A stretch of 64,000 bases of DNA, taken from NCBI GenBank assembly GCA_035555155.1, contig DATMGZ010000019.1, positions 3,130-67,129 on the forward strand, read 5' to 3'. The notes beneath the pieces are model-generated. The model had not been told where the DNA came from, ran no database searches, and saw nothing but the letters and a program-made list of their open reading frames with translations. The translations under genes and the position numbers were made by a program. The DNA is from Solirubrobacteraceae bacterium (GTDB lineage Bacteria; Actinomycetota; Thermoleophilia; Solirubrobacterales; Solirubrobacteraceae). Positions 669 to 45,985 of this stretch are shown piece by piece. Every line of letters starts with the position of its first letter. Position 1 is the stretch's first letter.

Positions 669-2522
669 TCACCCTTCGTACAGGCCGGCGAACGCCTCGG
701 CGAACTCGTCATAGATCTTGGCGCGCTTGATCTTCAGCGTCGGCGTCAGCTCCCCGTCGGCCTGGGTCAGCTCACGATCGAGAATCGCGAAGCGCTTGAC
801 CTGCTCGATGCGGGCGTAGCGGACGTTGATCTCGTCGAGCACCCGCTGGATCTCGGCCCGGATGCGAGCATCGTGGGCCATCGCGGCCGGGTCGGCCGGC
901 ACGCCGAGCTGCTCGGCGAGCTTGGGCGCCTCCTCGGGGTCGAGTGTGAGCAGCGCCACCAGGTAGGGACGCCGATCTCCGAACAGGACCGCCTCCGAGA
1001 TCCAGCGGCACTGCTTGAGCGCGTTCTCCATGTTGGATGGCGCCACGTTCTTGCCGCTCGAGGTGATGATCAGGTCCTTCTTGCGGCCCGTGATCGTCAC
1101 GAAGCCGTCCGCGTCGATCGTGCCGAGGTCGCCCGTCGTCAGCCAGCCGTCGGTGAGCGCGTCGGCGGTCGCGGCCGGGTCCTTGAAGTAGCCGGTGAAG
1201 ATGTTCCCGCCGCGGGCCAGCAGCTCGCCGTCGTCGGCGACGCGCATCTCGAGTCCCCCGACCGGCTTGCCGACCGTGCCGAGCTTCATCTCGACCTCGG
1301 TATTGATCGTGCCCGCCGCGCAGGTCTCCGTCATGCCCCAGGCCTCCACGAGCACGATCCCGCAGGAGTCGAAGAACTCGATTACCTCCTCGGCGATCGG
1401 CGCCGCGGCGGTGACCGCGAGCACGAGCCGGCCGCCGAACAGGTTCCTGACCTTCGAGAGCACTAGCTTGTCGGCGAGGCTGTGCTCGATCCTCAGGGCG
1501 CGGCCGGGGGCGCGCCCGCTGCGCTCGTGCGCGCGCACGCGTCGTCCGACGCCGATCGACCACTTGAAGATGGCGCGCTTGGGCATGGGCTGATCGGCCA
1601 CCCCGCTCGTCGCGGCCGAATAAACCTTCTCCCACACACGCGGGACGGACGCGAAGTAGGTCGGACGCGCCTCCTTGAAGTCCTCGAGCAGCCGCTTCTG
1701 GTCACGCTGCCAGTACACGAGCGTGCCGCCGATGTCGAGCGTGAACACCTCGACGATGCGCGCGAACACGTGGGCCAGCGGCAGGAACATGAAGAAGCGC
1801 ACCGGGGCGTCGGCCCGGGCCAGGTCGAGGCGCTCCTCGAGCGTATGGATCGCCACCATGAAGTTGCTGTGGGTCAGCATGCACGCCTTCGGCGGCCCGG
1901 TGGTCCCCGACGTGTACACCAGCGTCGCGAGGTCCTCGGGTGAGACGCTCGCCACGCGCTCGTCGACCGCGTCCTCGGGGATCTCCCTGCCTCGGGCGAT
2001 GAGCTGATCGAGCGTGAGCACCGACTCGCTGCCGGGACCCTCGAGCACGATCACCTCGCTCAGCCGCGGGCAGTCGGCCTGAATCTGCTCGATCTTCGCG
2101 ACCTGCTCGGCGTTCTCGCAGAACACCGCTCGGGCCTCGGAGTGCTCGAGCACGTACGCGCACTCCTCGGGTGAGTTGGTGTGGTAGATCGGTGCGACGA
2201 CGGCGCCGGCGCAGAATGCTCCGGCGTCGGCCACCGTCCACTCCGGGCGAGTGTCCGAGAGGATCGAGATGCGCTCTCCCGCCTCCACGCCGATCGCGAT
2301 CAGCCCTCGGGCGATGTCGCGGGCCGAGCGCAGCAGGTCGGGGTAGGAGATGTCCCGCCAGGCGCCGCCGTCCTTGTAGTTGAGCGCGACGCCGGCGCGC
2401 CCCTCGCTGCGCAACAGCATCTCGCCGAGCGTGCGCGCTCCGGTCGAGAGATCGAGTGCCGTGTGCTCGCTCGGTGTCGACGGCACCGGCGGTGGTGGTG
2501 TGCTGAGGGTGGCGCGGGTCAT
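669..2522 (-). CDS. fadD: Long-chain fatty acid--CoA ligase (AMP-dependent synthetase, FadD15-like)
   Basis: YTSGTTGPPK AMP-binding motif, EAWGMTE, TTGDLG, GRKKDLIITSSGKNVAP. ATG 2522 has a GAGGTGAGG SD; the track ORF 669..3671 is over-extended upstream. Confidence 0.9.
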   Translation of the reverse strand: MTRATLSTPPPPVPSTPSEHTALDLSTGARTLGEMLLRSEGRAGVALNYKDGGAWRDISYPDLLRSARDIARGLIAIGVEAGERISILSDTRPEWTVADAGAFCAGAVVAPIYHTNSPEECAYVLEHSEARAVFCENAEQVAKIEQIQADCPRLSEVIVLEGPGSESVLTLDQLIARGREIPEDAVDERVASVSPEDLATLVYTSGTTGPPKACMLTHSNFMVAIHTLEERLDLARADAPVRFFMFLPLAHVFARIVEVFTLDIGGTLVYWQRDQKRLLEDFKEARPTYFASVPRVWEKVYSAATSGVADQPMPKRAIFKWSIGVGRRVRAHERSGRAPGRALRIEHSLADKLVLSKVRNLFGGRLVLAVTAAAPIAEEVIEFFDSCGIVLVEAWGMTETCAAGTINTEVEMKLGTVGKPVGGLEMRVADDGELLARGGNIFTGYFKDPAATADALTDGWLTTGDLGTIDADGFVTITGRKKDLIITSSGKNVAPSNMENALKQCRWISEAVLFGDRRPYLVALLTLDPEEAPKLAEQLGVPADPAAMAHDARIRAEIQRVLDEINVRYARIEQVKRFAILDRELTQADGELTPTLKIKRAKIYDEFAEAFAGLYEG

Positions 2523-2735
2523 GACCTCACCTCGGGGACTTTGGGCAAGCGCCTCGCGCGTTTCACCTTCCGGCCTGCGCACGAGTCGCGCCCTGAGAGA
2601 CAGCCGTTGGTACCGACCGTACGCGCGCCGGGCTTGGACCGCATCGGCGCAAATCACGACCTGGGTCATGGGGCGGACTACTGACCCGCCCGGCGACTCC
2701 CCGGCTCGATAAACGCGGGCGGGAGGAGTATCGTC

Positions 2736-3155
2736 GTGGCCCGGCCCAGGCCGGATCGCCCGCCGGGCTCTTACCCTCTTGCTCTCGCGCGACACCCGCA
2801 AAGAGGGTCCGGAGACAACCTGAACATGCGAAGAGACCGCGGACGCGACGACGCTCGATCTGGAAGGCCCGCCCGGGGCGAGGTGCGCGCGATCGTCGAG
2901 CGGTTGCGTGAGCTGAAGTCCTCGCGCCCGCCGGCACCGATCCGCGAGCCGTCGGAGGATCTCGACAGCGAGGCCCGGATCGCCGCCCTGGAGCAGCGCA
3001 TCCAGCATCTCGAGCACGCGCTCGAGGGTCTTCAGGATGCGGTGGACCGCCAGAACGTGCTGCAGGACGACCGGATCGCGGAGCTCCGCCGGCGCACCGA
3101 GCCCGTGGAGATGGCACGGGCGCTGAGCGAGGACGCCAGAAAGCGGGGGTTCTAG
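2736..3155 (+). CDS. Hypothetical coiled-coil protein (alternative start 2826)
   Basis: GGAGGAG SD before GTG 2736; heptad-like RIAALEQRIQHLEHALEGLQDAVDRQ; stop abuts the next ATG. Confidence 0.6.
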   Translation: MARPRPDRPPGSYPLALARHPQRGSGDNLNMRRDRGRDDARSGRPARGEVRAIVERLRELKSSRPPAPIREPSEDLDSEARIAALEQRIQHLEHALEGLQDAVDRQNVLQDDRIAELRRRTEPVEMARALSEDARKRGF

Positions 3156-4975: not shown

Positions 4976-5320
4976 CCGGAACCCCCAGCGCGTCGATGAG
5001 TGGGCCTGCCTGCCGGCGCACTGCGTTGCAGAGCCGGTTGCCCTCGCGCGTGACCGCCTTCGTGTGCACCGAGGCGAGTCCCTTCGTGCGCACCGAGGCG
5101 AGTCCGTTCGTGCGCACCGAGGCGAGTCGCCCGTGCTCCTGCCGGAAGCCCTTGTCGGCTTCGATGTTCTGCAGCGCGAACAGGTCGCAGAGCAGATTCA
5201 GGGCGCAGGCCACGTCATCATCGTCGCACGCGTCGGAACAGACCCAGCAAGGTCGGCTCGCGGAATGCGCATGCGCTCGAACCAGATCCGGCCGTTGTCG
5301 ACACCATTGAGTCCGGCGCT
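4920..5320 (-). pseudogene. Acyl-CoA oxidase remnant (internal deletion, frameshift, tandem triplication)
   Basis: The minus strand encodes the hallmark [19 protein letters not shown] (5291-5314 core). In another frame it encodes the C-terminal [23 protein letters not shown]...[11 protein letters not shown]...[15 protein letters not shown]. No start codon or N-terminal domain is present. Confidence 0.75.
5058..5129. repeat. Tandem repeat 3 x 24 bp (CTTCGTG[T/C]GCACCGAGGCGAGTCC)
   Basis: Units at 5058-5081, 5082-5105 and 5106-5129; on the minus strand they read [24 protein letters not shown]. Confidence 0.95.
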
Positions 5321-5399
5321 GGCGCCCGTTCCGCGCGCCTACCAACCGCAGGTGAGAAGATCGACACGTGCGGTCGGCCGCGGCAGCTGTGGGAGAGAT

Positions 5400-7433
5400 G
5401 TGAGCGTCGCCGGCGCAACCGCGCCGACCGCCGGCCGACGCCACGGGGTGGCGATCGTCTTCACGGGCCTGATGCTCGTGATGCTGATGGCGGCGCTCGA
5501 CTCCACGATCGTCTCCACCGCCCTGCCGACGATCGTCGGCGACCTCGGCGGCCTCAACCACATCTCCTGGGTGGTGACCGCCTACCTGCTGGCCCAGACC
5601 GCGGTCACGCCGATCTACGGCAAGCTCGGCGATCAGTACGGGCGCAAGGTCGTGCTCCAGGTCGGCCTGATCGTGTTTCTGATCGGCTCGGCGCTGTGCG
5701 GGGCATCGCAGAACCTCACCGAGCTGATCGTGTTCCGAGCCGTCCAGGGACTCGGCGGCGGCGGGCTGATGGTGAGCACGATGGCCGCGATCGGCGACGT
5801 CGTCTCGCCCCGGGACCGCGGCAAGTACCAGGGGCTGTTCGGCGCCGTGTTCGGGCTGGCCAGCGTGATCGGCCCACTGCTCGGCGGCTTCTTCACCACG
5901 AACCTGTCGTGGCGCTGGATCTTCTACGTCAACCTCCCGATCGGGGCGGTGGCCTTCGTCGTCCTCGCCGCGACGCTGCCCGCTCCGCCCGAGCGCGTGC
6001 CCCACAAGGTCGACTACCTCGGGGCGAGCCTGCTCGCCACCGCGCTCATCGCGATCGTGCTCGCCTGCACCCTCGGCGGCACCACCTACGCCTGGGGCTC
6101 GCCGTTCATCATCGCCCTCGGCACGGCCGCGCTGGTGCTGATCGTGCTGTTCGTGATCGCCGAGCGCCGGGCCGAAGAGCCCGTGCTGCCGCCGCGCCTG
6201 TTCCGCAACCGGGTCTTCTCGGTGACCAGCGGGATCGGGTTCGTGGTCGGGTTCGCGCTGTTCGGATCGGTCACGTACCTGCCGCTGTTCCTGCAGGTCG
6301 TCAACGGCGCCAGCCCGACCAGCTCCGGACTCCAGATCCTGCCACTGATGGCCGGCCTGCTCGTGACCTCGATCGCCTCGGGGCAGCTGATCACCCGCAC
6401 CGGCCACTACCGGCCGTTTCCGATCGCCGGCACAGCCGTGATGGTCGTCGGCCTGTGGCTGCTTTCGGGCATGAGCGCGACCACCTCGCGGGCCGGCGCC
6501 TCGGCCTACATGTTCGTGCTCGGCCTGGGCCTCGGGATGGTGATGCAGGTGCTCGTGCTGGCCGTGCAGAACGCGGTCGAATACAAGGACCTCGGCGTCG
6601 CCACCTCAGGCGCGACGCTGTTCCGCTCGATCGGTGGTTCGGTGGGCACCGCGATCCTCGGCTCGATCTTCTCCAACCGGCTCAGCTCCGAGCTGACGGC
6701 GTCGCTGCCCCACAGCGGCGCCGGCGCGGCGGCGGCCGCGTCCAGCGGCCTCGCCCACGCCAACCCCGCGTCGCTCTCGAAGCTGCCACCGGTGCTCCAC
6801 ACCGCCTATATCCACGCGTTCACCAACGCGCTCGACACCGTCTTCCAGGTCGCCGCGTTCGTGGCCGCGGCCGCGTTCCTGCTCAGCCTGATCCTGCCCG
6901 AGCGCCCGTTGCGCGAGAGCGTCGCCGCCGGCAGCGGGATCGGCGAGAGCTTCGCCGTGCCCAAGGACACCGACTCCTTGGCCGAGCTCTCGCGCTCGCT
7001 GGGCGTGCTGGTTGGCCGGGAGGGCCGGCGGCGTCTGGTCGAGGGGATCGCCGAGCGGGCCGGGGTCGACCTCTCGCCCGCGGCGTGCTGGCTGCTCGCG
7101 CGGCTGCACGAGGATCCCGGTGCGCATATCGCCGCGTTGTGCTCGTCCTTCGCGATCTCGGCCGACGTCGGCGAGGAGGCGCTGGTGGAGCTCGTGCAGC
7201 GGGGCATGGTGATCGAGTCGCCGCCGGCCGAACCCGACGCGCCCCCGTCCCGTGTGCTGACGCCGGACGGGCTCCAGACGGTCGAGAAGCTGATCGCCGA
7301 ACGCCGGGCGAGCCTGGCCCGGCTGCTCGACGGCTGGTCGCCCGATCAGCACGCCGACCTCGCCAACCTGCTCAGCCGGCTCGCGCACGAGCTGGCCCGT
7401 GAGCCGTCGCAGGAGCTGGCGGTCAGGGTCTGA
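5400..7433 (+). CDS. DHA2 (EmrB/QacA) MFS efflux transporter fused to a C-terminal MarR-like winged-helix domain
   Basis: [44 protein letters not shown]; about 14 hydrophobic segments; tail [16 protein letters not shown]...LVQRGMV...LTPDG...[12 protein letters not shown] start at 5400. Confidence 0.88.
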
Positions 7434-9834: not shown

Positions 9835-10827
9835 ATGAGCACGCTGACCGACGTTCCTGACGGCGACACCCGCGCGGCCGAGGCGGAGGCGGAGGCCATG
9901 GACGCGTACTCGCGCGTGGTCGTCGATGTCGCCGAGCGGCTCGCGCCGTCGGTGGCCAACCTCCGGATCACGCGCCGGACCCGGGCCGGGCACGTCCCGG
10001 CCGGCGCCGGCAGCGCGGTCGCGCTGACCCCCGACGGCTTCCTGCTCACCTCTGCCCACGTCGTCGCCGGCCCGGGGCGCACCGGCCGCGCGGCGTTCGT
10101 CGACGGTCGCGAGCTCAGCTTCGGCGTGATCGGAGTCGATCACCTCTCCGACCTCGCCGTGCTGAGGACCGAAGGCGGCGACCTGACCCCGGCCCGTCTG
10201 GGCGAGGCCGAGGCGCTGCGCGTCGGCCAGCTGGTCATCGCGATCGGCAATCCCAACGGCTTCGCCGGCTCGGTGACGGCCGGGGTGGTCTCGGCGCTGG
10301 GGCGGTCGCTGCCCGCGCGCTCGGGGCGGACCGTGCGCTACATCGACAACGTGATCCAGACCGACGCGGCGCTCAATCCCGGCAACTCGGGCGGGGCGCT
10401 CGTCGACAGCGCGGCGCGTCTGGTCGGGATCAACACGGCGGTGGCCGGCGTCGGGCTGGGGCTCGCGGTGCCGATCAACGCCACCACGCGCGCCGTGGTC
10501 AGCGCCCTGATGAGCGACGGGCGGGTGCGGCGCGCCTACATCGGGATCGCCGGCGGACCGCGACCGTTGCCGCCGCACGCCCGCGTCCGGCTCGGGCGCA
10601 CGTCCGGCGTCGAGGTGGTGGAGGTGGCCTCCGGCAGCCCGGCGCAGCGCGCGGGCCTGCGCGCCGAGGACCTGATCGTCGAGCTCGGCGGTCGTGCGGT
10701 CGAGCGGGTCGATGACGTCCAGCGCGTGATGACCGCCGCTACGATCGGCTCCGCCTTGGCCGCCCGCGTGCTCCGCGGCGACCGGCTGCTCGAGCTCGAG
10801 CTGCGACCGGTGGAGCTGACGGACTGA
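9835..10827 (+). CDS. S1C (HtrA-like) serine protease with PDZ domain, no signal peptide
   Basis: LTSAHVV / SDLAVL / IQTDAALNPGNSGG; PDZ AYIGI...GSPAQRAGLRAEDLIVELGG. Confidence 0.92.
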   Translation: MSTLTDVPDGDTRAAEAEAEAMDAYSRVVVDVAERLAPSVANLRITRRTRAGHVPAGAGSAVALTPDGFLLTSAHVVAGPGRTGRAAFVDGRELSFGVIGVDHLSDLAVLRTEGGDLTPARLGEAEALRVGQLVIAIGNPNGFAGSVTAGVVSALGRSLPARSGRTVRYIDNVIQTDAALNPGNSGGALVDSAARLVGINTAVAGVGLGLAVPINATTRAVVSALMSDGRVRRAYIGIAGGPRPLPPHARVRLGRTSGVEVVEVASGSPAQRAGLRAEDLIVELGGRAVERVDDVQRVMTAATIGSALAARVLRGDRLLELELRPVELTD

Positions 10828-11822: not shown

Positions 11823-12344
11823 ATGTTCCGCTGGTACGTAGTCAACACCTATTCGGGTCACGAGAACAAGGTCAAGCACAACCTCGAGCATCGGGTCGTC
11901 TCGCTGAACCAGCAGCGCGCGGTCCGGCAGATCGTCGTGCCGACCGAGACGGTGTCCGAGATGAAGGACAACCAGAAGATCACCGTCGAGAAGCGGACGA
12001 TGCCCGGCTACGTGCTCGTCAACATGGACCTCAACGAGGACTCCTGGTCGTTGGTCAAGGGCACGCCCGGCGTGACCGGGTTCGTGGGCGCCTCCAACGA
12101 GCCCGTCCCGCTCACCCAGGCGGAGGTCGATCGCCTGCTGCACCAGGAGACCGCCGAGCGGCCGCGCAGCCGGGCCCAGTTCTCGATCGGCGAGTCGGTC
12201 AAGGTCATCTCCGGACCGCTGTCGGACTTCTCGGGCGAGATCTCCGAGGTCAACGAGGACGCGCAGCGACTCAAGGTGCTCGTGTCGATCTTCGGCCGCG
12301 AGACCCCGGTCGAGGTCGGATTCGACCAGGTCAAGAAGATTTAG
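11823..12344 (+). CDS. nusG: Transcription termination/antitermination factor NusG
   Basis: [35 protein letters not shown] motif [24 protein letters not shown]. Confidence 0.98.
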
Positions 12345-12346
12345 GG

Positions 12347-12367
12347 GCCGCCTCCGGCGGCTTGTTT
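12347..12367 (+). terminator. Short hairpin plus U-rich tail between nusG and rplK
   Basis: GCCGCC-TCC-GGCGGC-TTGTTT. Confidence 0.4.
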
Positions 12368-12395
12368 GAAAAGATTTCGAGCGAAGCGGTAATTC

Positions 12396-12818
12396 ATGGC
12401 CAAGAGAGTCCTCACTGTCATCAAGCTCCAAGCCGTCGGCGGCTCCGCCAGCCCGGCCCCCCCGGTCGGCCCCGCGCTGGGTCAGCACGGCGTGAACATC
12501 ATGGAGTTCGTCAAGGCGTTCAACGCCCAGACGCAGTCCGACATGGGCACCGTGATCCCGGTCGAGATCACCGTGTTCGAGGACCGCTCGTTCACCTTCG
12601 TGACCAAGAGCCCGCCGGCCGCCGTGCTGATCAAGCAGGCGATCTCGCTCGAGAAGGGCTCGGCGGAGCCGCACCGCGACAAGGTGGGCAGGATCACCCA
12701 GGCCCAGCTCAAGGACATCGCGGAGAAGAAGATGAAGGACCTGAACGCCAACGACATCGACGCCGCAGCGAAGATCATCGCCGGCACCGCCCGCTCGATG
12801 GGCGTGGAGGTGGTCTAA
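12396..12818 (+). CDS. rplK: 50S ribosomal protein L11
   Basis: [37 protein letters not shown]. Confidence 0.98.
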
Positions 12819-13532
12819 ATGGGCAAGCACGGCAAGCGCTACCTCGACGCGCGCCAGCGCCTCGATCGCGAGCACGAATACACGCCCATGGAGGCTGTCG
12901 CACTGATCAAGCAGCTCAAGACCGCCAACTTCAACGAGTCGGTCGAGGTCCACGTGCGGACCGGGCTCAACGTCCGTCACGCCGACGAGCAGCTGCGCGG
13001 GACGATCGCGCTGCCGCACGGCCTCGGCAAGGACGTCAAGGTCGCCGTGTTCGCTCAGGGCGACAAGGCCCGTGAGGCCGAGGAGGCCGGCGCCGACGTG
13101 GTCGGCGCCGAGGACCTTGCGGCGCGGATCCAGGATGGCTTCGACGACTTCGACGTGGCGATCGCCACGCCCGATCTGATGCCGGTCGTCGGCCGGCTCG
13201 GCCGGATCCTCGGTCCGTCGGGCAAGATGCCGAACCCCAAGGTCGGCACGGTGACGATGGATGTCGCCAAGGCAGTCGAGGAGTCCAAGGCCGGCAAGGT
13301 CGAGTACCGCACCGACCGCACCGCGATCGTGCACCTGGTGATCGGCAAGAGCGACTTCGACGACCACCGCCTGCTCGAGAACTACGCGGCGGTGATGGAC
13401 GAGCTGATCCGCGCCAAGCCGTCGGCGGCCAAGGGGCGCTACATCCGGTCGGTCACCTTCGCGACCACGATGGGCCCGGGCGTGAAAGTGGAACCCACGC
13501 GCGTGCGCGACCTCGAGGAGTCGGCCGCGTAG
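12819..13532 (+). CDS. rplA: 50S ribosomal protein L1
   Basis: [44 protein letters not shown]. Confidence 0.98.
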
Positions 13533-35741: not shown

Positions 35742-36871
35742 AAGTTGGTGTCCCCACCGAGGTCAAGAAGGACGAATACCGGGTCGCGCTGACCCCCGCC
35801 GGCGTGCGCGAGCTCGCCGATGCCGGCCATGAGGTCTACATCCAGAGCGGCGCCGGCGTGGGCTCGGCGATCGAGGACGCCGACTACGCCGCCCAGGGGG
35901 CGACGATCGTGCCCGACGCCGACGCGGTGTTCGAGGCCGGCGAGCTGATCGTCAAGGTCAAGGAACCCCAGCCGGCCGAGGTGGCCCGGCTCGAGCCGCG
36001 GCACACGCTGTTCACCTATCTGCACCTGGCCGCCGACGCTGAGCTGACCCGGGGGCTGATGGCCTCCGGCGCGACCTGCATCGCCTACGAGACGGTCGAG
36101 GACGTCCGGGGTCGGCTGCCGCTGCTGGCGCCGATGTCCGAGGTGGCCGGAAAGATCGCCACCCAGGCCGGGGCGTTCATGCTCGAGAAGCCGCTCGGCG
36201 GCCGGGGCATCCTGCTCGGCGGCGTGCCCGGCGTGACCGCGGCGAACGTGATGATCATCGGCGGCGGAGTCGTCGGCATGAACGCCGCCTTCATCGCGCT
36301 CGGGATGGAGGCGACGGTGTTCGTGTTCGACCGCAGCATCGACCGCCTGCGGGAGCTCGACATCGCCTTCGGCGGCCGGGCCGACACCTGTTTCGCGTCC
36401 ACGCTCGAGATCGAGCAGCGGCTGCCCCACGCCGACCTGGTGATCGGCGCGGTGCTCGTGCACGGCGCGCGCGCCCCGCGCGTGGTCACCCGTGCGCAGC
36501 TCGGGCTGATGAAGCGCCAGGCGGTGCTCGTGGACGTCTCGATCGACCAGGGCGGCTGCTTCGAGACCTCCCGGCCCACGACCCACTCCGACCCGACCTA
36601 CGAGGTCGACGGGATCACCCACTACTGCGTCACCAACATGCCCGGCGCGGTGCCGATCACCTCCACCTACGCGCTCACCAACGCGACCATGCCCTACGTG
36701 GTGCAGCTCGCCGGCGCCCGCGCGCGGGCGGCGATCGCGGCCAGCCCCGAGCTCAGGCCGGGCGTCAACGTGGCCGGCGGCCAGGTGACCTACGCGCCGG
36801 TGGCGGAGGCGGTCGGGATCCCGCACGTGTCGGTCGAAGAGGCGCTCTCCTCGGCCGTGGGGGCGGCGTGA
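35738..36871 (+). CDS. ald: Alanine dehydrogenase
   Basis: [59 protein letters not shown]; GTGA overlap with pucR. Confidence 0.96.
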
Positions 36872-36902
36872 GATGGTGGGAGAGGGCCCAACCGGCCCGC
36901 CC

Positions 36903-36911
36903 TGCTAGCCT
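36903..36911 (+). promoter_or_regulatory. Putative extended -10 promoter giving a near-leaderless rpsL mRNA
   Basis: TGcTAGCCT ends 10 nt before the ATG at 36922; no SD upstream of that ATG. Confidence 0.5.
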
Positions 36912-36921
36912 TGCGCGTCGC

Positions 36922-37314
36922 ATGCCGACTACAAGCCAATTGATCCGTAAGGGCCGTAACGCGCCGAAGAAGAAGCTCGCCACCCCGGGCCTCAAGTCCG
37001 GCAAGGGCCGCAAGAAGAAGGTTGCCGCTCCGCAGCGACGCGGTGTGTGCACGCGCGTCTATACGACCACGCCCAAGAAGCCGAACTCCGCGCTGCGCAA
37101 GGTGGCGCGCGTGCGGCTGACCAACGGCATGGAGGTCGGCGCCTACATCCCCGGCGAGGGGCACAACCTGCAGGAGCACTCGGTCGTGCTCGTCCGCGGC
37201 GGTCGCGTCAAGGACCTCCCGGGATTCCGCTACAAGGTGATCCGCGGCACCCTCGACGCCGCCGGCGTCGGCGACCGCAAGAAGGCCCGCTCGCAGTACG
37301 GCGTGAAGAAGTAA
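36922..37314 (+). CDS. rpsL: 30S ribosomal protein S12
   Basis: [43 protein letters not shown]. Confidence 0.98.
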
Positions 37315-37321
37315 CGCACTC

Positions 37322-37792
37322 ATGCCCCGCCGCGCAGCCGCCCAGATCCGGCCGATCGAACCCGACCCCGTCCACCGCAACCGCCTCGTACAGCAGGTGG
37401 TCAACAAGGTGATGCTGGACGGCAAGAAGTCCACCGCCGAGCAGATCGTCTACGACGCCCTCGCCATCCTCGGCGAGCGCAGCGGCAAGAACCCCGTCGA
37501 GCAGCTCGAGGCGGGCATCAAGGCGCTGACCCCGGTGCTCGAGGTCCGCTCCCGCCGCGTCGGCGGCGCCACCTACCAGGTTCCCGTCGAGGTCCCCGCG
37601 CGCCGCGCCCGGACTCTCGCCGTCCGCTGGCTCATCCAGTTCTCCCGCGCTCGCCGCGAGAAGACGATGGCCCAGCGCCTCGCGCACGAGCTTCTCGACG
37701 CCCAGCAGCAGCAGGGCGCCGCGTTCAAGCGCAAGGATGACATCTACCGCATGGCGCAGGCCAACAAGGCCTTCGCCCACTATCGCTGGTAG
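37322..37792 (+). CDS. rpsG: 30S ribosomal protein S7
   Basis: [36 protein letters not shown]. Confidence 0.98.
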
Positions 37793-37856
37793 CGGCGCCC
37801 GGCGCCGTCTTGGCGCCCGCCCGAGCGGCTGCAAACCGGCGCCTCGCTGTGTTCTC

Positions 37857-37887
37857 GGCGCGGCGATAGCGCTGCTATCGCCGCGCC
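37857..37887. terminator. Bidirectional hairpin between rpsG and the convergent inserted block
   Basis: GGCGCGGCGATAGC-GCT-GCTATCGCCGCGCC, 14-bp perfect stem. Confidence 0.7.
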
Positions 37888-37957
37888 TGCGTCGTTGCGA
37901 GGCTTGGTTTTCGCTCGCCGGTGACTCACCCTATCCCCAGCCGCCGTTGACGCCCGG

Positions 37958-39562
37958 CTACCCCGCGCCGACGCGTCCGATCTCGTCCCGGACCGCGGGC
38001 AGGAACGCGTTCTTCGGCCCGTTCCGGCCCGACGCCGCCGATGCGCGCGTTCCGCCGCCACCCGCGCTCGCCACACTCGCGCGGGCCGCGCCGGCCGCTG
38101 CCCAGTCGTGCGCGGCCGCCTTCAGCGCCAGCAGCGCCGGCCAGGTGGTGGCGTCGATGACGCCGGTGGCCCGGATTCCGTGGGCGGTCTGGAACGCCCT
38201 CACCGCCGCAGCGGTGAGGCTGCCGAAGCTGCCGTCGGTGGCGACGGTGGCGCCGGCGGCGACGAGGTGCTCCTGGGCCCAGACGACGAGGTCGCCCTGC
38301 GAGCCGCTGCTGAGCGTCGGGTAGCCGGGCGCCGGGCTCGGGGGCGGCAGGGATCCGATCGGCGAGCCGACCGCGCCCCAGCCGGCGGTGGTCGCCTCCT
38401 GCCAGTCCCACCAGCTCTCACCGCCCGCCCCGTAGGCGGCCGCGTCCTGGCGGAAGCGCAGCAGAGCCGAGACCGGCGGGCTGTTGTAGATCTGCCCGAG
38501 GGGGTAGATCGGGGCGCCGTAGACCCGGTTCAGCGGCCAGGTGTGGGCATAGACGGTGTCCACGCTGGTGCCGATGTCTTGCCAGTACATCTGGGGCAGG
38601 TTGTACTGCGCGCCGCCCGGCCCGAGGAACACGGAGTAGGGGAAGGCGGGGTGGTAATCGACGTAGGGGAAGCTCGCGAGGCCGACGGGATAGGACGCAC
38701 CGACGCCCTTGCGCAGCGCCTGGATGTACTGCTGGGCCTGCGAGTAGCGGCCCTCGTACTCGCTCTCGGCGTCGATCACGAGGCAGTCGGCGCCGTTGCG
38801 GGCCGATTGGATGCCGACCTGCGCCTCGGCCAGCGGGGAGTTGCCGTACACGTACTGCCACGCGCACACGTGCAGGCCCTGGGCCTTGAGGGCGGCGACG
38901 TTCGCCGGCGAGAACTGCGCCCACTGGTTGCCGCCGTCGCCGGACTTGAGGAACACGGTCTTGACCCCGTGGGCGGCGGCCTGGCGGCCGATGGCGACGG
39001 GATCGCCGCCCTGGGAGGCGCTCAGGTACCAGATCCACATCCCGTTGCCGTTGAGGACGCTCGCGCCGGCGGTGACCGGGGGCTGGACCGGCGGCGACAC
39101 GGCGGGCGCCGGTGGCCGCCGGACCGTGATCCGGATTCCGTTCGAGCGGGAGCTTCCGGGCGACACGAGCCGGAGCACGCCGCTGACCGCGTCCGCGGGA
39201 ACCGTGACCAGCATCCGGGTCGCGCGCACCATCCGGCCGCTCACGCTCCGGGTCCAGTGCCGGCCGTTGTCGCGGGCGGGGATCAGGATCCGGGTCCGGG
39301 CGAGGAGGCCGTGGGCGCCGACCTCGAGCTCGCTGGTGCGCACGACCACGACCGGAGAGCCGGGATAGCAGGGGATGCTCGTGCGGATGCAGTGAACCCA
39401 GACGAGCGTCGGGCGCACCACCCTGGCCGCCGCCGCCGCCGGAACGAGGACGGCCACGAGCGCCAGCACCGCCCCCGCCGCGGCCGTCACGGCCGCGAGC
39501 CGGGCGGCCGCGAGCCGGGCGGCCGGCGACGCGAGCGTGCTCGGGTGTCGCGCGGGACTCAT
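37958..39562 (-). CDS. Secreted peptidoglycan-binding protein with a glycoside-hydrolase-like TIM-barrel domain
   Basis: Signal peptide, beta-rich N-domain, GMWIWY...VFLKSGDG...AWQYVYG...LVIDAESEY...PQMYW; PG_binding_1 tail LSSGSQGDLV...DGSFGSLTAAAVRAFQ..HGI.ATGVID..TW. Confidence 0.82.
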   Translation of the reverse strand: MSPARHPSTLASPAARLAAARLAAVTAAAGAVLALVAVLVPAAAAARVVRPTLVWVHCIRTSIPCYPGSPVVVVRTSELEVGAHGLLARTRILIPARDNGRHWTRSVSGRMVRATRMLVTVPADAVSGVLRLVSPGSSRSNGIRITVRRPPAPAVSPPVQPPVTAGASVLNGNGMWIWYLSASQGGDPVAIGRQAAAHGVKTVFLKSGDGGNQWAQFSPANVAALKAQGLHVCAWQYVYGNSPLAEAQVGIQSARNGADCLVIDAESEYEGRYSQAQQYIQALRKGVGASYPVGLASFPYVDYHPAFPYSVFLGPGGAQYNLPQMYWQDIGTSVDTVYAHTWPLNRVYGAPIYPLGQIYNSPPVSALLRFRQDAAAYGAGGESWWDWQEATTAGWGAVGSPIGSLPPPSPAPGYPTLSSGSQGDLVVWAQEHLVAAGATVATDGSFGSLTAAAVRAFQTAHGIRATGVIDATTWPALLALKAAAHDWAAAGAARASVASAGGGGTRASAASGRNGPKNAFLPAVRDEIGRVGAG

Positions 39563-41505
39563 GAAACCTGGTACCCAAGCTTGGCAAGCTGGTCAAGGTC
39601 CGACCCGAGCTGCTGCGTGGCTCCGGCCACCTCGGCGCGGGCGATCGTGTATCCGATCGGGTCATGCCGGCGGGCCGCGCCGGCGATGTCCCGGTAGGCC
39701 TGGCTCACCTGCGCGAGGCTGTCGCGGACCGCCACGTGTGCGCCCGTCTCGGGCGGGCTGACAATTCCGGCCCCGAGAGCTCGAGTGAAGGCGGCGGCGG
39801 CCGTCGCGTAGGCGTCGGCGAGCCCGTTCGCCGCCGCCCTCTGGGCGCCGGGGTCGCGGGCCTGGGCGAAATCGCCGAGGCCGGCGTCGGCCTGAGCGGA
39901 GAGCCGGCCGAGCACAGGGTTCAGGAACCCGGCGTAGCCGGCGCGCGGATCGAGCGGGTAATGCGCGGCGCCGGTGACCCGAACCGTGTTGAGGATGTGC
40001 TCGCAGCCGGCGAACAAGCCCCCGCCGGCGGCGAACGTCGGCGCGACGCAGGCGGCGACGGCCACACGCCCGCGCCTGGGCACGAGCAGAACCTCGTAGT
40101 GGTGGCGGCCGACGACGTCGTACAGCCGGCCCTGGAGGCCGCTCGGCAGCTTCACCGCCGTGCCCAGCGCCGGCACTGCGGCGACATCGCGGAGCGTCTT
40201 GGGCACCAGGCTCGGGCCGAAGGCCACGGTCGTTCCCACGGCGACCACGCCACGTGTCGCCGATGCCGGCCCGGCGGCGGCGTTCGCGCCCGCGAACAGC
40301 TCCGGCAGCGACACGCGTCGCGACCCCCAGCTCGCCGGAACCTCGACGCTGACGCCGTCATGGCTGAGCTGGCGCGTCGGCGTCAGGGCGCCGGCCTCCT
40401 CACCGCCGCGCCCGGCCAGGAAGCCCGCCAGCGTCGCGACTCCGCACGCCGCGGCGAGGAGCCCGACGCCGCGTGGTGCGCGCCACCGGCGCCGGCGGGG
40501 TGCCCGCGGCGCGGGTGCCGGCGCCGGCCACCGCGGTGGCGGCTGCGGCTGCGTCTCGATGACGACCTCGGTCGCCGCGGTGGCACGGGCGGGGATCGCC
40601 TGGGTGGCCGAGGTCACACCGGTCGGATCGACGGATCGCGCGCTCGTCTTGATCGAAAGGGTCGCCGCGCGGACCGGCGCCGGCACCGCCGCCCGCGCCT
40701 CGAGCGCGCGCCGGGCCGCGGCGATCAGCTCCGCCGCGCTGGCGTAGCGGTCCTCCCGGCGCTTGGCCAACGCCCGGGCGAACACCGCGTCGAGCTCGAC
40801 CGGCAGCTCCGGCGCCAGCGTGCGCACCGACGGCGGCGGCTGCTCGAGGTGCGCGTACATGGTGGCGATCTTGCTCGAGCGGGGGAAGGGGACGGCGCCG
40901 GAGAGACACTCGAACAGGACGGCTCCGAGCGAGTACAGATCGCTGCGGGCGTCGGGCTCCTCGTCACGGATCTGCTCCGGGGAGACGTAATCCGGTGTGC
41001 CGACGAACTGGCCCGTCGTGGTGACCGACGTGACCCCGGCGGCGGTGGTCAGTCCGAAGTCGGCCAGGTAGGCGTGGTCGCCGCCGGCCACGAGGATGTT
41101 CTGCGGCTTGACGTCGCGGTGGATCAGCCCGGCGGCGTGAGCGGCATCGAGCGCGCGGGCGATCCCGCGGAGCAGATCGAGCGCGTCGGACACCTCGAGG
41201 GTCCCGATCAGCTGCTTGAGGTTCGGACCGTCGACGAGGCGCATCGCGATGAACAGGCCGTAGGAGGACTCGCCGGCCTCGTACACCGGGACGATGTTCG
41301 GGTGCTCGAGCGTCGCCTGCAGCATCGCCTCCCGCCGGAAGCGCTTGTGGAACGCCTCGTCCTGGCTGAGGTTCGCCGACAGCACCTTCAATGCAACCAC
41401 TCGGCCGAGCGAGAGTTGCGTCGCGAGGTACACGGTGCCCATCCCACCGGACGCGAGGTAGCCGTCGATCCGGAATCCGGCGATGCGGGTACCCGGCTCG
41501 AGCAT
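39559..41505 (-). CDS. Hanks-type Ser/Thr protein kinase with TM segment and non-PASTA extracellular domain
   Basis: LASGGMGTVY, VALKVL, HPNIV, IHRDVKPQNIL, DFG, GTPDYVSPEQ, DLYSLG; TM GLLAAACGVATLAGFLAG. Start ATG 41505. Confidence 0.93.
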   Translation of the reverse strand: MLEPGTRIAGFRIDGYLASGGMGTVYLATQLSLGRVVALKVLSANLSQDEAFHKRFRREAMLQATLEHPNIVPVYEAGESSYGLFIAMRLVDGPNLKQLIGTLEVSDALDLLRGIARALDAAHAAGLIHRDVKPQNILVAGGDHAYLADFGLTTAAGVTSVTTTGQFVGTPDYVSPEQIRDEEPDARSDLYSLGAVLFECLSGAVPFPRSSKIATMYAHLEQPPPSVRTLAPELPVELDAVFARALAKRREDRYASAAELIAAARRALEARAAVPAPVRAATLSIKTSARSVDPTGVTSATQAIPARATAATEVVIETQPQPPPRWPAPAPAPRAPRRRRWRAPRGVGLLAAACGVATLAGFLAGRGGEEAGALTPTRQLSHDGVSVEVPASWGSRRVSLPELFAGANAAAGPASATRGVVAVGTTVAFGPSLVPKTLRDVAAVPALGTAVKLPSGLQGRLYDVVGRHHYEVLLVPRRGRVAVAACVAPTFAAGGGLFAGCEHILNTVRVTGAAHYPLDPRAGYAGFLNPVLGRLSAQADAGLGDFAQARDPGAQRAAANGLADAYATAAAAFTRALGAGIVSPPETGAHVAVRDSLAQVSQAYRDIAGAARRHDPIGYTIARAEVAGATQQLGSDLDQLAKLGYQVS

Positions 41506-41729
41506 CAGTGACCGCCGCACGCCTTCCCCACACCGCAGAGCGGTCCCACCGAGCCCGAGTTGCGCAGGGACCCGGCGTGAACCGCCAGCGACCCGGTGTG
41601 GATCGAGGTGAGCTGTTCCTCGCGCGCGCTGCGCCCGAGCCCGAATCCGATCCCCGCGCAGCAGATCACGGCGACCGCGGCAGCGAGGGCCCGGCGGGGA
41701 GAGGGGAGCAAGGAGCGGGGCGTCTGCAC
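41505..41729 (-). CDS. Small single-TM/exported peptide (about 74 aa; alternative start 41783)
   Basis: RRALAAAVAVICCAGIGFGLGRS hydrophobic segment; its TGA overlaps the kinase ATG (TGATG coupling). Confidence 0.55.
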   Translation of the reverse strand: MQTPRSLLPSPRRALAAAVAVICCAGIGFGLGRSAREEQLTSIHTGSLAVHAGSLRNSGSVGPLCGVGKACGGH

Positions 41730-41878
41730 GTCTCGCTCCGAGCGTAACGACCGCGCCGCCGATCGCCCACGCGTGGCAGACAAATAACGCGAGGGTCGCC
41801 CGCCGCACGGGACCGGGGGCTGCAGCGGGACAACCCTCGCGTCTAGGAAATGTAACGCCCGGCGGGTGGCGGCGTGGA

Positions 41879-42460
41879 TTAGTTGGCCGGCAAGTCAGAT
41901 GCCTGCCGGGCGGATTGGACATGCACGCCAGCGGAAGGGCGAGGACCCGGGGGCGCCCCGCCGAGCAGAAGCCCGAGCCCCGCCGTGACGATCAGGACGG
42001 CGGCGCCGAGCGTCTCCATGTACAGGCCCGCCTGGGGCGTCGAGCTGGCATTGGCGTAGTGACCGGATCCGGCCGCGATGAGGCCCGTCGCGTGGGCGTC
42101 GGGCAGGTCGGCGGCGAGGGCGAGCACGAGCGTCAGCAGTCCGAGCACGCCCAGCGCCACGAGCGCCGGACGGCTTCCCTGACTCCAGGCGCCATACGCG
42201 AGCAGGACGGCGAGGATCGCGACCGGAATCAGCGCATCGGCGTGGTGCGATCCTGTCGAGACCGACGTGACGGCCACCGGGCTGAGGGCGGTGTGGACCT
42301 CGAACAGCGTCGTGAACTCCGCGACGACGAGCAGCAGCGCCCCGAGCAGGCCGCCGGCGAAAACCGCCGCCGGGACGGCCGATCCGATCCTCGCCAGGCC
42401 CCCGGACGGCTCCGACCCTCTGCTATATTCGGGCTTCGCCTCGGGCGGCGTCGCGTTCAT
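41879..42460 (-). CDS. Integral membrane protein (about 4 TM), function unknown
   Basis: GLLGALLLVVAEFTTLF, ALIPVAILAVLLAYGA, LGVLGLLTLVLALAADLPD, GLYMETLGAAVLIV; start set at ATG 42460. Confidence 0.75.
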   Translation of the reverse strand: MNATPPEAKPEYSRGSEPSGGLARIGSAVPAAVFAGGLLGALLLVVAEFTTLFEVHTALSPVAVTSVSTGSHHADALIPVAILAVLLAYGAWSQGSRPALVALGVLGLLTLVLALAADLPDAHATGLIAAGSGHYANASSTPQAGLYMETLGAAVLIVTAGLGLLLGGAPPGPRPSAGVHVQSARQASDLPAN

Positions 42461-42550
42461 CCGTGCTCGCTCCCGGGCGCAGATGGATCCCAGCGATGGA
42501 GACGCCGACCTACTAGACAAAAGCCCGCCCTCGACAGCCGCGTCGTGAAC

Positions 42551-42570
42551 GGGCCCCCTGGGCCCTTTTT
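42551..42570 (+). promoter_or_regulatory. Terminator-like hairpin in the fusA leader (possible attenuator)
   Basis: GGGCCC-CCT-GGGCCC-TTTTT ending 47 nt before the fusA ATG. Confidence 0.5.
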
Positions 42571-42617
42571 CATGTCCGCGGCGATGACCGGCAACCACCC
42601 CAGAAGAAACCACTTTC

Positions 42618-44711
<2,094 letters not shown>

Positions 44712-44797
44712 CAGCAATCCCAGACGGAACTTAGATAGATTGATTGGGTTCGCCCGCAGGGCGGACCACAACCACTGAGCAGAAGGAGCACACCAAA

Positions 44798-45985
<1,188 letters not shown>

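Follow-up and report, generated by a model that had tools for sequence, protein, structure and literature searches.

A peptide–kinase pair, probably joined by a cell-wall hydrolase in one narrow lineage, between rpsG and fusA in a Solirubrobacteraceae bacterium

When three genes are knitted together by overlapping stop and start codons, do their products also form one functional unit, and does a place beside the genes for the elongation factors say anything about their role? These questions are raised by a locus in a stretch of 64,000 nucleotides (the window in what follows, G+C content ~70%) from a Solirubrobacteraceae bacterium, in which a small membrane protein, a Hanks-type Ser/Thr kinase and a secreted hydrolase-like protein are encoded between rpsG and fusA. 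Homologues of the window's proteins bear names from Solirubrobacteraceae, Conexibacter and Thermoleophilaceae, i.e. from the class Thermoleophilia (Actinomycetota), abundant soil actinobacteria with almost no experimental genetics, and peat and soil metagenomes contain DNA near-identical to the window. The original prediction, made from the letters of the window, saw in the three genes a translationally coupled envelope-signalling unit standing back-to-back with fusA-tuf. The reading favoured here, to which we assign a probability of roughly 60%, is that the small membrane protein and the kinase form an old pair and a sensing complex that signals to FHA-type partners, that the hydrolase is a recent, lineage-specific capture, and that the position beside fusA-tuf has no functional meaning.

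Gene company of the kinase and of the hydrolase

On the minus strand, the three genes encode a 74-aa bitopic membrane protein (41505-41729; hereafter the peptide), recognized by its G+C content at third codon positions (GC3), a Shine-Dalgarno sequence with a GTG start and a transmembrane (TM) helix; the 648-aa kinase (39559-41505; Pkinase, E=5e-41); and a 534-aa secreted hydrolase-like protein (37958-39562), which rests on Pfam, an AlphaFold2 (AF2) model and Foldseek. GC3 is high in the annotated frame of all three, the small open reading frame (ORF) included. The junctions are exactly as first described: the peptide's TGA (41507-41505) and the kinase's ATG (41505-41503) have one base in common in the string TGATG (41507-41503), and the kinase's TGA (39561-39559) overlaps the hydrolase's ATG (39562-39560) as ATGA (39562-39559). 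Because such overlaps are frequent in these genomes (4-nt overlaps join five of the 15 co-directional neighbour pairs in locus L001), an overlap alone shows operon membership and no special link between the products.

A more telling view comes from relatives. A scan of GTDB species genomes with an alignment of the hydrolase yielded at least 580 relatives, and the best 80 hydrolase loci, with up to 10 kb of flank each, were screened by tblastn for the kinase domain, its ectodomain, the peptide, the protein with four TM segments (4-TM protein) encoded next to the peptide, EF-G and S7. The kinase was nearby in only two, L007 and L008, which are the closest relatives at 79% and 90% hydrolase identity; in the other 78 of these best 80 loci there was no kinase within 10 kb. 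The usual setting of the hydrolase elsewhere is that of a stand-alone gene (e.g. in L001 and L003), often near a DUF3891 gene.

On the kinase side, where the census rests on gene look-ups, orthologues at 50–56% identity are followed by a different gene instead. In L089 (54% kinase identity) the 4-TM gene, the peptide and the kinase precede an FHA-domain protein (gene at 6045-6734), and in L092 (56%) peptide and kinase are followed 2 nt later by the same FHA protein (2326-3015). L004 (50%) presents the 4-TM gene, peptide and kinase, then a BNR protein, the FHA protein (12281-12967) and glycosyltransferases, and an FHA homologue (10302-10799) also lies downstream of the kinase in L090 (45%), a paralogue elsewhere in the genome. 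The FHA protein of 229 aa combines an FHA domain (E=8.8e-13) with a C-terminal segment resembling a helix-turn-helix (HTH; sub-threshold HTH_24, E=0.0022). It is the usual downstream partner of this kinase family and likely its transcriptional output.

A third line of evidence is provided by L088, which is 86–90% identical in nucleotide sequence. Here, the kinase lacks residues ~84-305 and ~494-623 through deletions of about 678 and 399 nt (within 5070-6060) and is frameshifted; the peptide and hydrolase ORFs are intact. At least one strain would therefore appear to keep the hydrolase without a working kinase. Since 78 of the 80 hydrolase loci are free of the kinase, since the orthologues have the FHA gene downstream, and in view of L088, the hydrolase was most probably added in one narrow lineage to an older peptide–kinase(–FHA) module, and the idea that the three genes are conserved together is not borne out.

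A known counterpart of the supposed ancestral arrangement is PknH-EmbR of mycobacteria, in which a receptor Hanks kinase has an FHA-domain transcription factor as its neighbour. In both, the receptor Ser/Thr kinase crosses the membrane once and its ectodomain is not of the PASTA type, and an FHA-HTH gene lies downstream in the case of L089, L092, L004 and L090. Unlike PknH-EmbR, the present family has an ectodomain that is PsbP-like with a four-helix bundle (4HB), a translationally coupled bitopic peptide upstream and, in the relatives, an HTH that is not of the SARP type, and in the window a secreted hydrolase stands in place of the FHA gene.

From these observations, the following course can be proposed. 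The rpsG-fusA gap with its 4-TM gene and hairpin (see below) would hold variable cargo, which in one set of lineages is the peptide–kinase pair. Ancestrally, an FHA+HTH protein would follow the pair as a phospho-dependent transcriptional output, as with PknH-EmbR. In the narrow clade of the window, the FHA regulator would then have gone from that position, and a GH25-like, peptidoglycan-binding hydrolase, elsewhere a stand-alone gene of housekeeping type, would have joined via the ATGA overlap. Peptide and kinase may form a membrane complex whose PsbP-like/4HB ectodomain binds an extracytoplasmic cue, upon which the kinase would autophosphorylate on its Thr-rich activation loop and signal to cytoplasmic FHA-type partners. 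The hydrolase would be tied to the kinase through co-expression from the same transcript and not through an ancient ligand–receptor loop. The window thus seems to work like a member of the kinase/FHA pairs that has lost or moved its FHA part, and the swap of the downstream gene for a wall hydrolase offers a natural experiment on the rewiring of a kinase's output.

Support for co-transcription from metatranscriptomes is weak. A 700-nt contig (98% identical) crosses the peptide/kinase junction, with carry-over of DNA possible in its library; depth is low, and of the unit's junctions only this one is covered and the kinase/hydrolase junction is not. A scan for sigma-70 consensus sequences found no promoter, as expected for a high-GC actinobacterium.

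Several points weigh against the captured hydrolase and its older partners as drawn above. An FHA+HTH homologue is absent from the 64-kb window (tblastn) and from the related loci, and hence the hydrolase could have taken over the output role. In relatives at 79–90% identity, the kinase and hydrolase genes still overlap as ATGA, perhaps because coupled expression is under selection, in which case the two would be tied functionally more closely than mere capture implies. The L088 locus comes from one metagenome contig, in which misassembly is possible, and the sampling of orthologues is small, with five independent lineages that have the kinase and three that do not. The metatranscriptome contigs may include DNA: one of them spans the divergent promoter region of the 4-TM gene and fusA, so that carry-over has to be reckoned with. 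Finally, the ligand, the contact between peptide and kinase and the substrates are all inferred.

The kinase, its sensor domain and the peptide

The catalytic domain (residues 1-275; 40681-41505, minus strand) matches PF00069 with E=5e-41 and 141 bits against a cut-off of 31.7. It displays a glycine-rich SGGMG loop, VALK at residues 37-40 (K40), HRDVKPQN at 129-136, DFG at 149-151, SPE at 175-177 and a Thr-rich activation loop. The protein is, as read from these motifs, a Hanks-type Ser/Thr protein kinase with an intact catalytic core. A Pro/Ala/Arg-rich juxtamembrane linker (residues 276-344) leads to the TM helix (residues 345-365; 40411-40473), which was located by a hydropathy scan, and to an ectodomain of 283 aa (residues 366-648; 39562-40410). 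In the latter, no PASTA repeats were found with Pfam or NCBIfam. PknB_PASTA_kin, the closest of the NCBIfam models, extends over residues 11-344 only, and its score of 307.8 falls short of the cut-off of 450 because the ectodomain is unrelated. The description of the kinase as having an intact core, one TM helix and a non-PASTA ectodomain of this size therefore holds.

The same ectodomain had been called a region of unknown fold. This was right insofar as there is no sequence annotation: no sequence relative was found in Pfam, NCBIfam or the PDB, the last tried with a family profile. The fold itself is no longer obscure, as it is predicted with confidence. An AF2 model built on an alignment of 32 homologues (predicted local distance difference test, pLDDT, 92.6; predicted template modelling score, pTM, 0.84) consists of an alpha/beta domain rich in beta structure and, behind it, four long helices, with two invariant Cys in the first half. 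For this half, a Foldseek search of the PDB returned nine PsbP/CyanoP entries (E 1.6e-4 to 2.7e-3, probability 1.00, template modelling (TM) score 0.48-0.56 on the target), and the second half shows a likeness to the 4HB ligand-binding domain of PcaY_PP (E~0.15). With high confidence, the model thus predicts a membrane-proximal PsbP/Mog1-like domain and a distal four-helix bundle.

The membrane-proximal half superposes on PsbP with a TM score of about 0.5 on the target, and the distal half resembles a ligand-binding domain of four-helix-bundle chemoreceptors in the form of that of PcaY_PP. The ectodomain differs from PsbP/Mog1 and 4HB proteins in that there is no sequence similarity (12% identity); as a sequence family, PsbP gave neither a Pfam match nor a match to a PDB sequence. 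Neither Pfam nor NCBIfam describes a Ser/Thr kinase that combines a PsbP-like domain with a 4HB.

An exhaustive profile search revealed 2,550 protein clusters that share the ectodomain at E<=1e-10, among them kinases of 600–800 aa and stand-alone proteins of ~300 aa. Together with the predicted fold, this turns the former unknown into a defined, unannotated sensor family. About half of the best matches are only ~300 aa long, with the domain preceded by no more than a short N-terminal stretch; such proteins may represent gene fragments or free-standing forms of the sensor anchored in the membrane. When metagenomes were scanned with a narrower alignment of the ectodomain, only two loci came up, one of which is identical to the window. 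As a separate observation, the BNR protein of L004 (9909-12209) is a 766-aa BNR/Ycf48-like, sortilin-like propeller protein (PSII_BNR, E=2.3e-27) that adjoins the kinase with its PsbP-like ectodomain. Two folds known from photosystem II assembly hence stand side by side in a non-photosynthetic actinobacterium, which may be coincidence.

The constant companion of this sensor is the peptide. Its start is plausibly the GTG at 41729, with GGAG 7 nt upstream (41739-41736); a TTG at 41783, which would give a 92-aa peptide, was rejected as it sits in the U-rich tail of the hairpin described below. The product has a basic N-terminus, a TM helix (residues 13-35) and an outside tail of ~40 aa with the motif L-x-V-H-x-G-S-L...P-P-L-C-G...C in the window. 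Orthologous ORFs are found in the same place in L002/L007, L008, L088, L092, L004 and L089 and have nine invariant columns. They retain the TM helix and the tail motif L-x-V-H-x-G-x-L ... P-P though identity drops to 27–31% in L004 and L089. The TGATG overlap with the kinase gene was kept wherever examined (window, L008, L004, L089, L092). Upstream of paralogous kinases whose ectodomains belong to this family (L005, L006), one likewise finds bitopic proteins of 118–134 aa, with tails of a similar kind. Judging from this conservation, peptide and kinase are a translationally coupled core pair, in orthologues down to 50% kinase identity, so that the proposed coupling of these two genes proved both real and co-conserved.

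Could the small ORF encode no functional protein at all and serve only, as an upstream ORF or leader, to bring translating ribosomes to the start of the kinase? Its shortness, its lack of a family in Pfam and NCBIfam and its fast divergence (the 27–31% identity to the L004 and L089 versions) would fit such a role. A mere leader is nevertheless very unlikely in view of a coding-type GC3 (0.85–0.93 in its own frame over 41755-41620), of the basic N-terminus, TM helix and outside motif conserved in six orthologues, and of the analogous 118–134-aa bitopic proteins upstream of the paralogous kinases.

As a kind, the system belongs to the Hanks receptor kinases; new are the undescribed sensor domain, the small membrane partner and the unusual downstream gene. 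What emerges is a three-part signalling module composed of a large unannotated sensor family (~2,550 clusters), a small membrane protein as its constant partner and an FHA+HTH protein as the likely output.

The hydrolase and its possible ties to the kinase

As originally proposed, the third gene encodes a secreted, barrel-type hydrolase-like protein with a peptidoglycan-binding domain, in agreement with Pfam, the AF2 model (pLDDT 80) and Foldseek. A hydrophobic signal/anchor helix at the N-terminus is followed by an Ig-like sandwich with two invariant Cys (residues 52-148; 39119-39409), a GH25-like, TIM-like barrel with D264-A-E266 (residues 173-400; 38363-39046) and a PG_binding_1 module (residues 422-477; 38132-38299), all on the minus strand. 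The last of these is clear from sequence (PF01471, E=1.6e-13, 51 bits against a cut-off of 23; PDB relatives 5nm7 and 1lbu), and it was the only part matched when a profile of the whole protein was run against the PDB.

The assignment of the barrel requires more caution. A barrel-only profile found no sequence in the PDB, and the window protein remains under the Pfam threshold for GH25 (PF01183; 22 bits against 27). Among 34 family members, 29 match GH25 at E<=0.01, the best at E=1.5e-6, and the stretch concerned also matches PHROG endolysin family 291. D264-A265-E266, without variation among 34 sequences, lies within the stretch aligned to positions 15-115 of the GH25 profile; its residue equivalence to the GH25 motif is only presumptive. 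Foldseek retrieved the GH25 endolysin 4kru (E=3.6e-5, TM score 0.51 on the target) and 2wag, with many unrelated TIM barrels scoring alike, and phage 'lysozyme' models were also among the matches. Given the sub-threshold score of the window protein, the matches across the family, the generic barrel matches and the lack of a PDB sequence, the protein is called GH25-like here and not a member of GH25. Activity on peptidoglycan is likely.

Comparison with the GH25 muramidases (Cpl-1, cellosyl, the phage phiSM101 endolysin) points in the same direction. A wall-binding module is common to both, and Pfam GH25 matches, though weak, recur across the family. The predicted barrel fold (Foldseek 4kru, 2wag) and a D-x-E motif placed on a central strand may be further points of agreement. 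Unlike GH25, the first strand (GMWIW) is without the usual N-terminal Asp, and the window protein is extended by an Ig-like domain and by a tail conserved at the C-terminus. This tail (residues ~500-534; 37958-38060) carries the motif N-G-P-x-S-A-x-L-P-A-x-R-x-E-I throughout the family; a sortase signal is excluded by the lack of a hydrophobic segment behind the motif. The barrel by itself has a clear homologue, in structure and in sequence, in A0A6J5L5X0, a 255-aa protein from an uncultured tailed phage (E=4.8e-19, TM score 0.81, 32% identity), and the barrel family is therefore shared with phages.

How tightly is this enzyme bound to the kinase? For PASTA kinases (PknB/PrkC/Stk1), the signals are muropeptides or lipid II, and wall hydrolases, CwlA among them, are under kinase control (PMC8262956). 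The window kinase is similar in its Hanks catalytic core, its single TM helix and its link to cell-wall hydrolysis; it differs in being without PASTA repeats, and the hydrolase of the known systems lies outside the kinase operon. One conceivable arrangement is a closed loop, i.e. an obligate three-protein envelope-sensing unit in which wall fragments released by the hydrolase, or the peptide itself, bind the ectodomain and set kinase activity. The overlapping codons that tie the three genes, a protein that unites a peptidoglycan-binding domain with a lysozyme-like barrel, and an arrangement kept in all five clade loci are in its favour. Yet hydrolase and kinase are unlinked outside the clade, as the 78 of 80 loci without the kinase illustrate, and orthologues of the kinase that share its ectodomain have an FHA regulator as their partner and no hydrolase. 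PsbP-like and 4HB domains are furthermore not known as a muropeptide-binding module, the hydrolase would persist in L088 without a working kinase, and the peptide is TM-anchored and gives no hint of being processed or exported to act as a diffusible signal. Altogether, a closed loop is unlikely.

Alternatively, the enzyme could be a kinase-controlled autolysin. The kinase would phosphorylate the hydrolase precursor before export and thereby limit its delivery to the wall, with the coupling placing the nascent hydrolase beside the kinase. There is a precedent in Clostridioides difficile, where PrkC controls the export of CwlA by phosphorylation (PMC8262956). Moreover, the ATGA coupling is kept in the clade, and the hydrolase holds the slot that in relatives belongs to the FHA partner, which is of a class of kinase substrates. 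A control of this type is decidedly improbable, considering that the hydrolase family is overwhelmingly kinase-independent, that conserved Ser or Thr residues are missing from its variable N-terminal region, and that L088 retains the hydrolase beside a dead kinase. Co-expression of a captured hydrolase with an older pair remains the preferred account.

The rpsG-fusA gap and its conserved hairpin

The four minus-strand genes of the inserted block are flanked by rpsL-rpsG (36868-37792, plus strand) on the left and fusA-tuf (42618-45985, plus strand) on the right. The left flank comprises rpsL (36868-37314) and rpsG (37322-37792), the latter supported by its ORF and translation and 99% identical in L002, L007 and L008. 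On the right, fusA (42618-44711; ORF, translation and synteny) is divergent from the 4-TM gene, and tuf corresponds to a listed ORF at 44744-45985 whose true start is probably internal. The fourth gene of the block encodes the 4-TM protein (193 aa; 41879-42460, minus strand), with four hydrophobic segments and GC3 supporting an ATG at 42460. This gene and a conserved hairpin intervene between the peptide gene and fusA, and hence the three-gene unit does not stand back-to-back with fusA-tuf.

The 4-TM protein has 372 homologues and no match in Pfam or NCBIfam. Its gene lies between rpsG and fusA in L093, L094, L095, L004, L089, L002, L007 and L008. On three large contigs (L093, L094, L095), all homologues are in this gap and divergent from fusA, and the surrounding order is that of the window: aminotransferase, PucR, alanine dehydrogenase, rpsL, rpsG ... 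fusA, tuf, rpsJ. Behind the 4-TM gene, the cargo amounts to nothing in L093, one small gene in L094, and AraC, glyoxalase and helicase genes in L095; other cargo in the gap is the kinase module and, in L004, a 10-kb block with glycosyltransferases. By synteny, the split of rpsL-rpsG from fusA-tuf by an opposite-strand 4-TM gene is order-wide in Solirubrobacterales, with variable cargo.

This bears directly on the suggestion that the kinase targets EF-G and/or EF-Tu and owes its place beside fusA-tuf to that role. In other bacteria, Hanks kinases can phosphorylate elongation factors, and this background, together with physical proximity, is all that speaks for such a role. The gene divergent from fusA is the 4-TM gene and not the kinase; in L093 and L094 this gap is without a kinase, and in L095 it is occupied by unrelated genes; and kinases of the same family are encoded elsewhere in the genome (L005, L006, L090). 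Since the gap is anchored order-wide by the 4-TM gene, adjacency to fusA-tuf is best seen as an inherited position and provides no evidence for EF-G or EF-Tu as substrates. Targeting of the elongation factors is extremely improbable, and an attractive but unsupported reading of gene position is thereby corrected.

Because the str cluster is split, fusA should need its own promoter here. A GC-rich hairpin, GGGCCCCCTGGGCCC, then TTTTTCATGT, is located ~45 nt upstream of the fusA start (42551-42575, plus strand); it may be terminator-like or a structured fusA leader. In a soil metatranscriptome (X20), several RNA contigs link the end of rpsG straight to the start of fusA and omit ~4.85 kb (37790-42651 of the window). 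They presumably stem from other taxa with an uninterrupted str cluster, and with matching sides of 21–30 nt they are weak evidence.

The boundary between the 4-TM gene and the cargo is marked by a second, 58-nt hairpin (41786-41843, minus strand), situated between the 4-TM and peptide genes and ending in a U-rich tail (41787-41781). Its C-rich apex, GCAGCCCCCGGUCCCGUG (41823-41806), is invariant. The consensus fold has 25 pairs with 99.2% of cells paired and two to three pairs with compensatory changes (G-C to A-U), and the 181 nt around it (41700-41880) fold with z = -4.3. The non-Watson-Crick pairs are all G-U on the minus strand, which argues for an RNA in the sense of the 4-TM gene. A covariance model detects the hairpin at 76–107 bits in every 4-TM locus, including those free of the kinase, and nowhere else in 1.5 Mb of related DNA. 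Against Rfam, nothing reached the gathering score, and matches at E>1 only were at chance level. Six nt upstream of the hairpin base lies TACATT (41849-41854, minus strand), a -10-like TANNNT hexamer with a putative promoter role, whose T, A and final T are fixed in position in nine of ten distinct copies; the middle varies (CAT, CGA, GTC, CCC). A coding reading of the region, by an ORF (39559-41922) that runs into the kinase frame, was rejected, as GC3 does not support it and the substitutions are compensatory stem changes.

Possible roles of this hairpin are those of a small RNA transcribed from a promoter of its own, of a terminator behind the 4-TM gene, or of a leader/attenuator that acts on the cargo. 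Owing to its constant place at the edge of a variable segment, a recombination site is a further possibility. Whatever its role, the str cluster, among the best conserved in bacteria, is broken here by a highly conserved hairpin RNA together with a site of changing cargo. A bolder account would join both ends of the locus. The hydrolase would have replaced the FHA+HTH protein as the output of a kinase assisted by the peptide, which would create a self-contained autolysin circuit in which the kinase gates the muramidase's export or activity, or muramidase products feed back on the PsbP-like/4HB sensor; a promoter–hairpin element that marks a cargo-exchange site in the str cluster would drive it. 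This scenario is doubtful, and capture of the hydrolase by an older peptide–kinase pair is preferred to it.

One variant at the hairpin itself deserves mention. In L092, two tandem copies about 90 nt apart (96-270) stand upstream of the peptide gene, the second without the TANNNT hexamer, and this duplication could be the footprint of recombination at the site.

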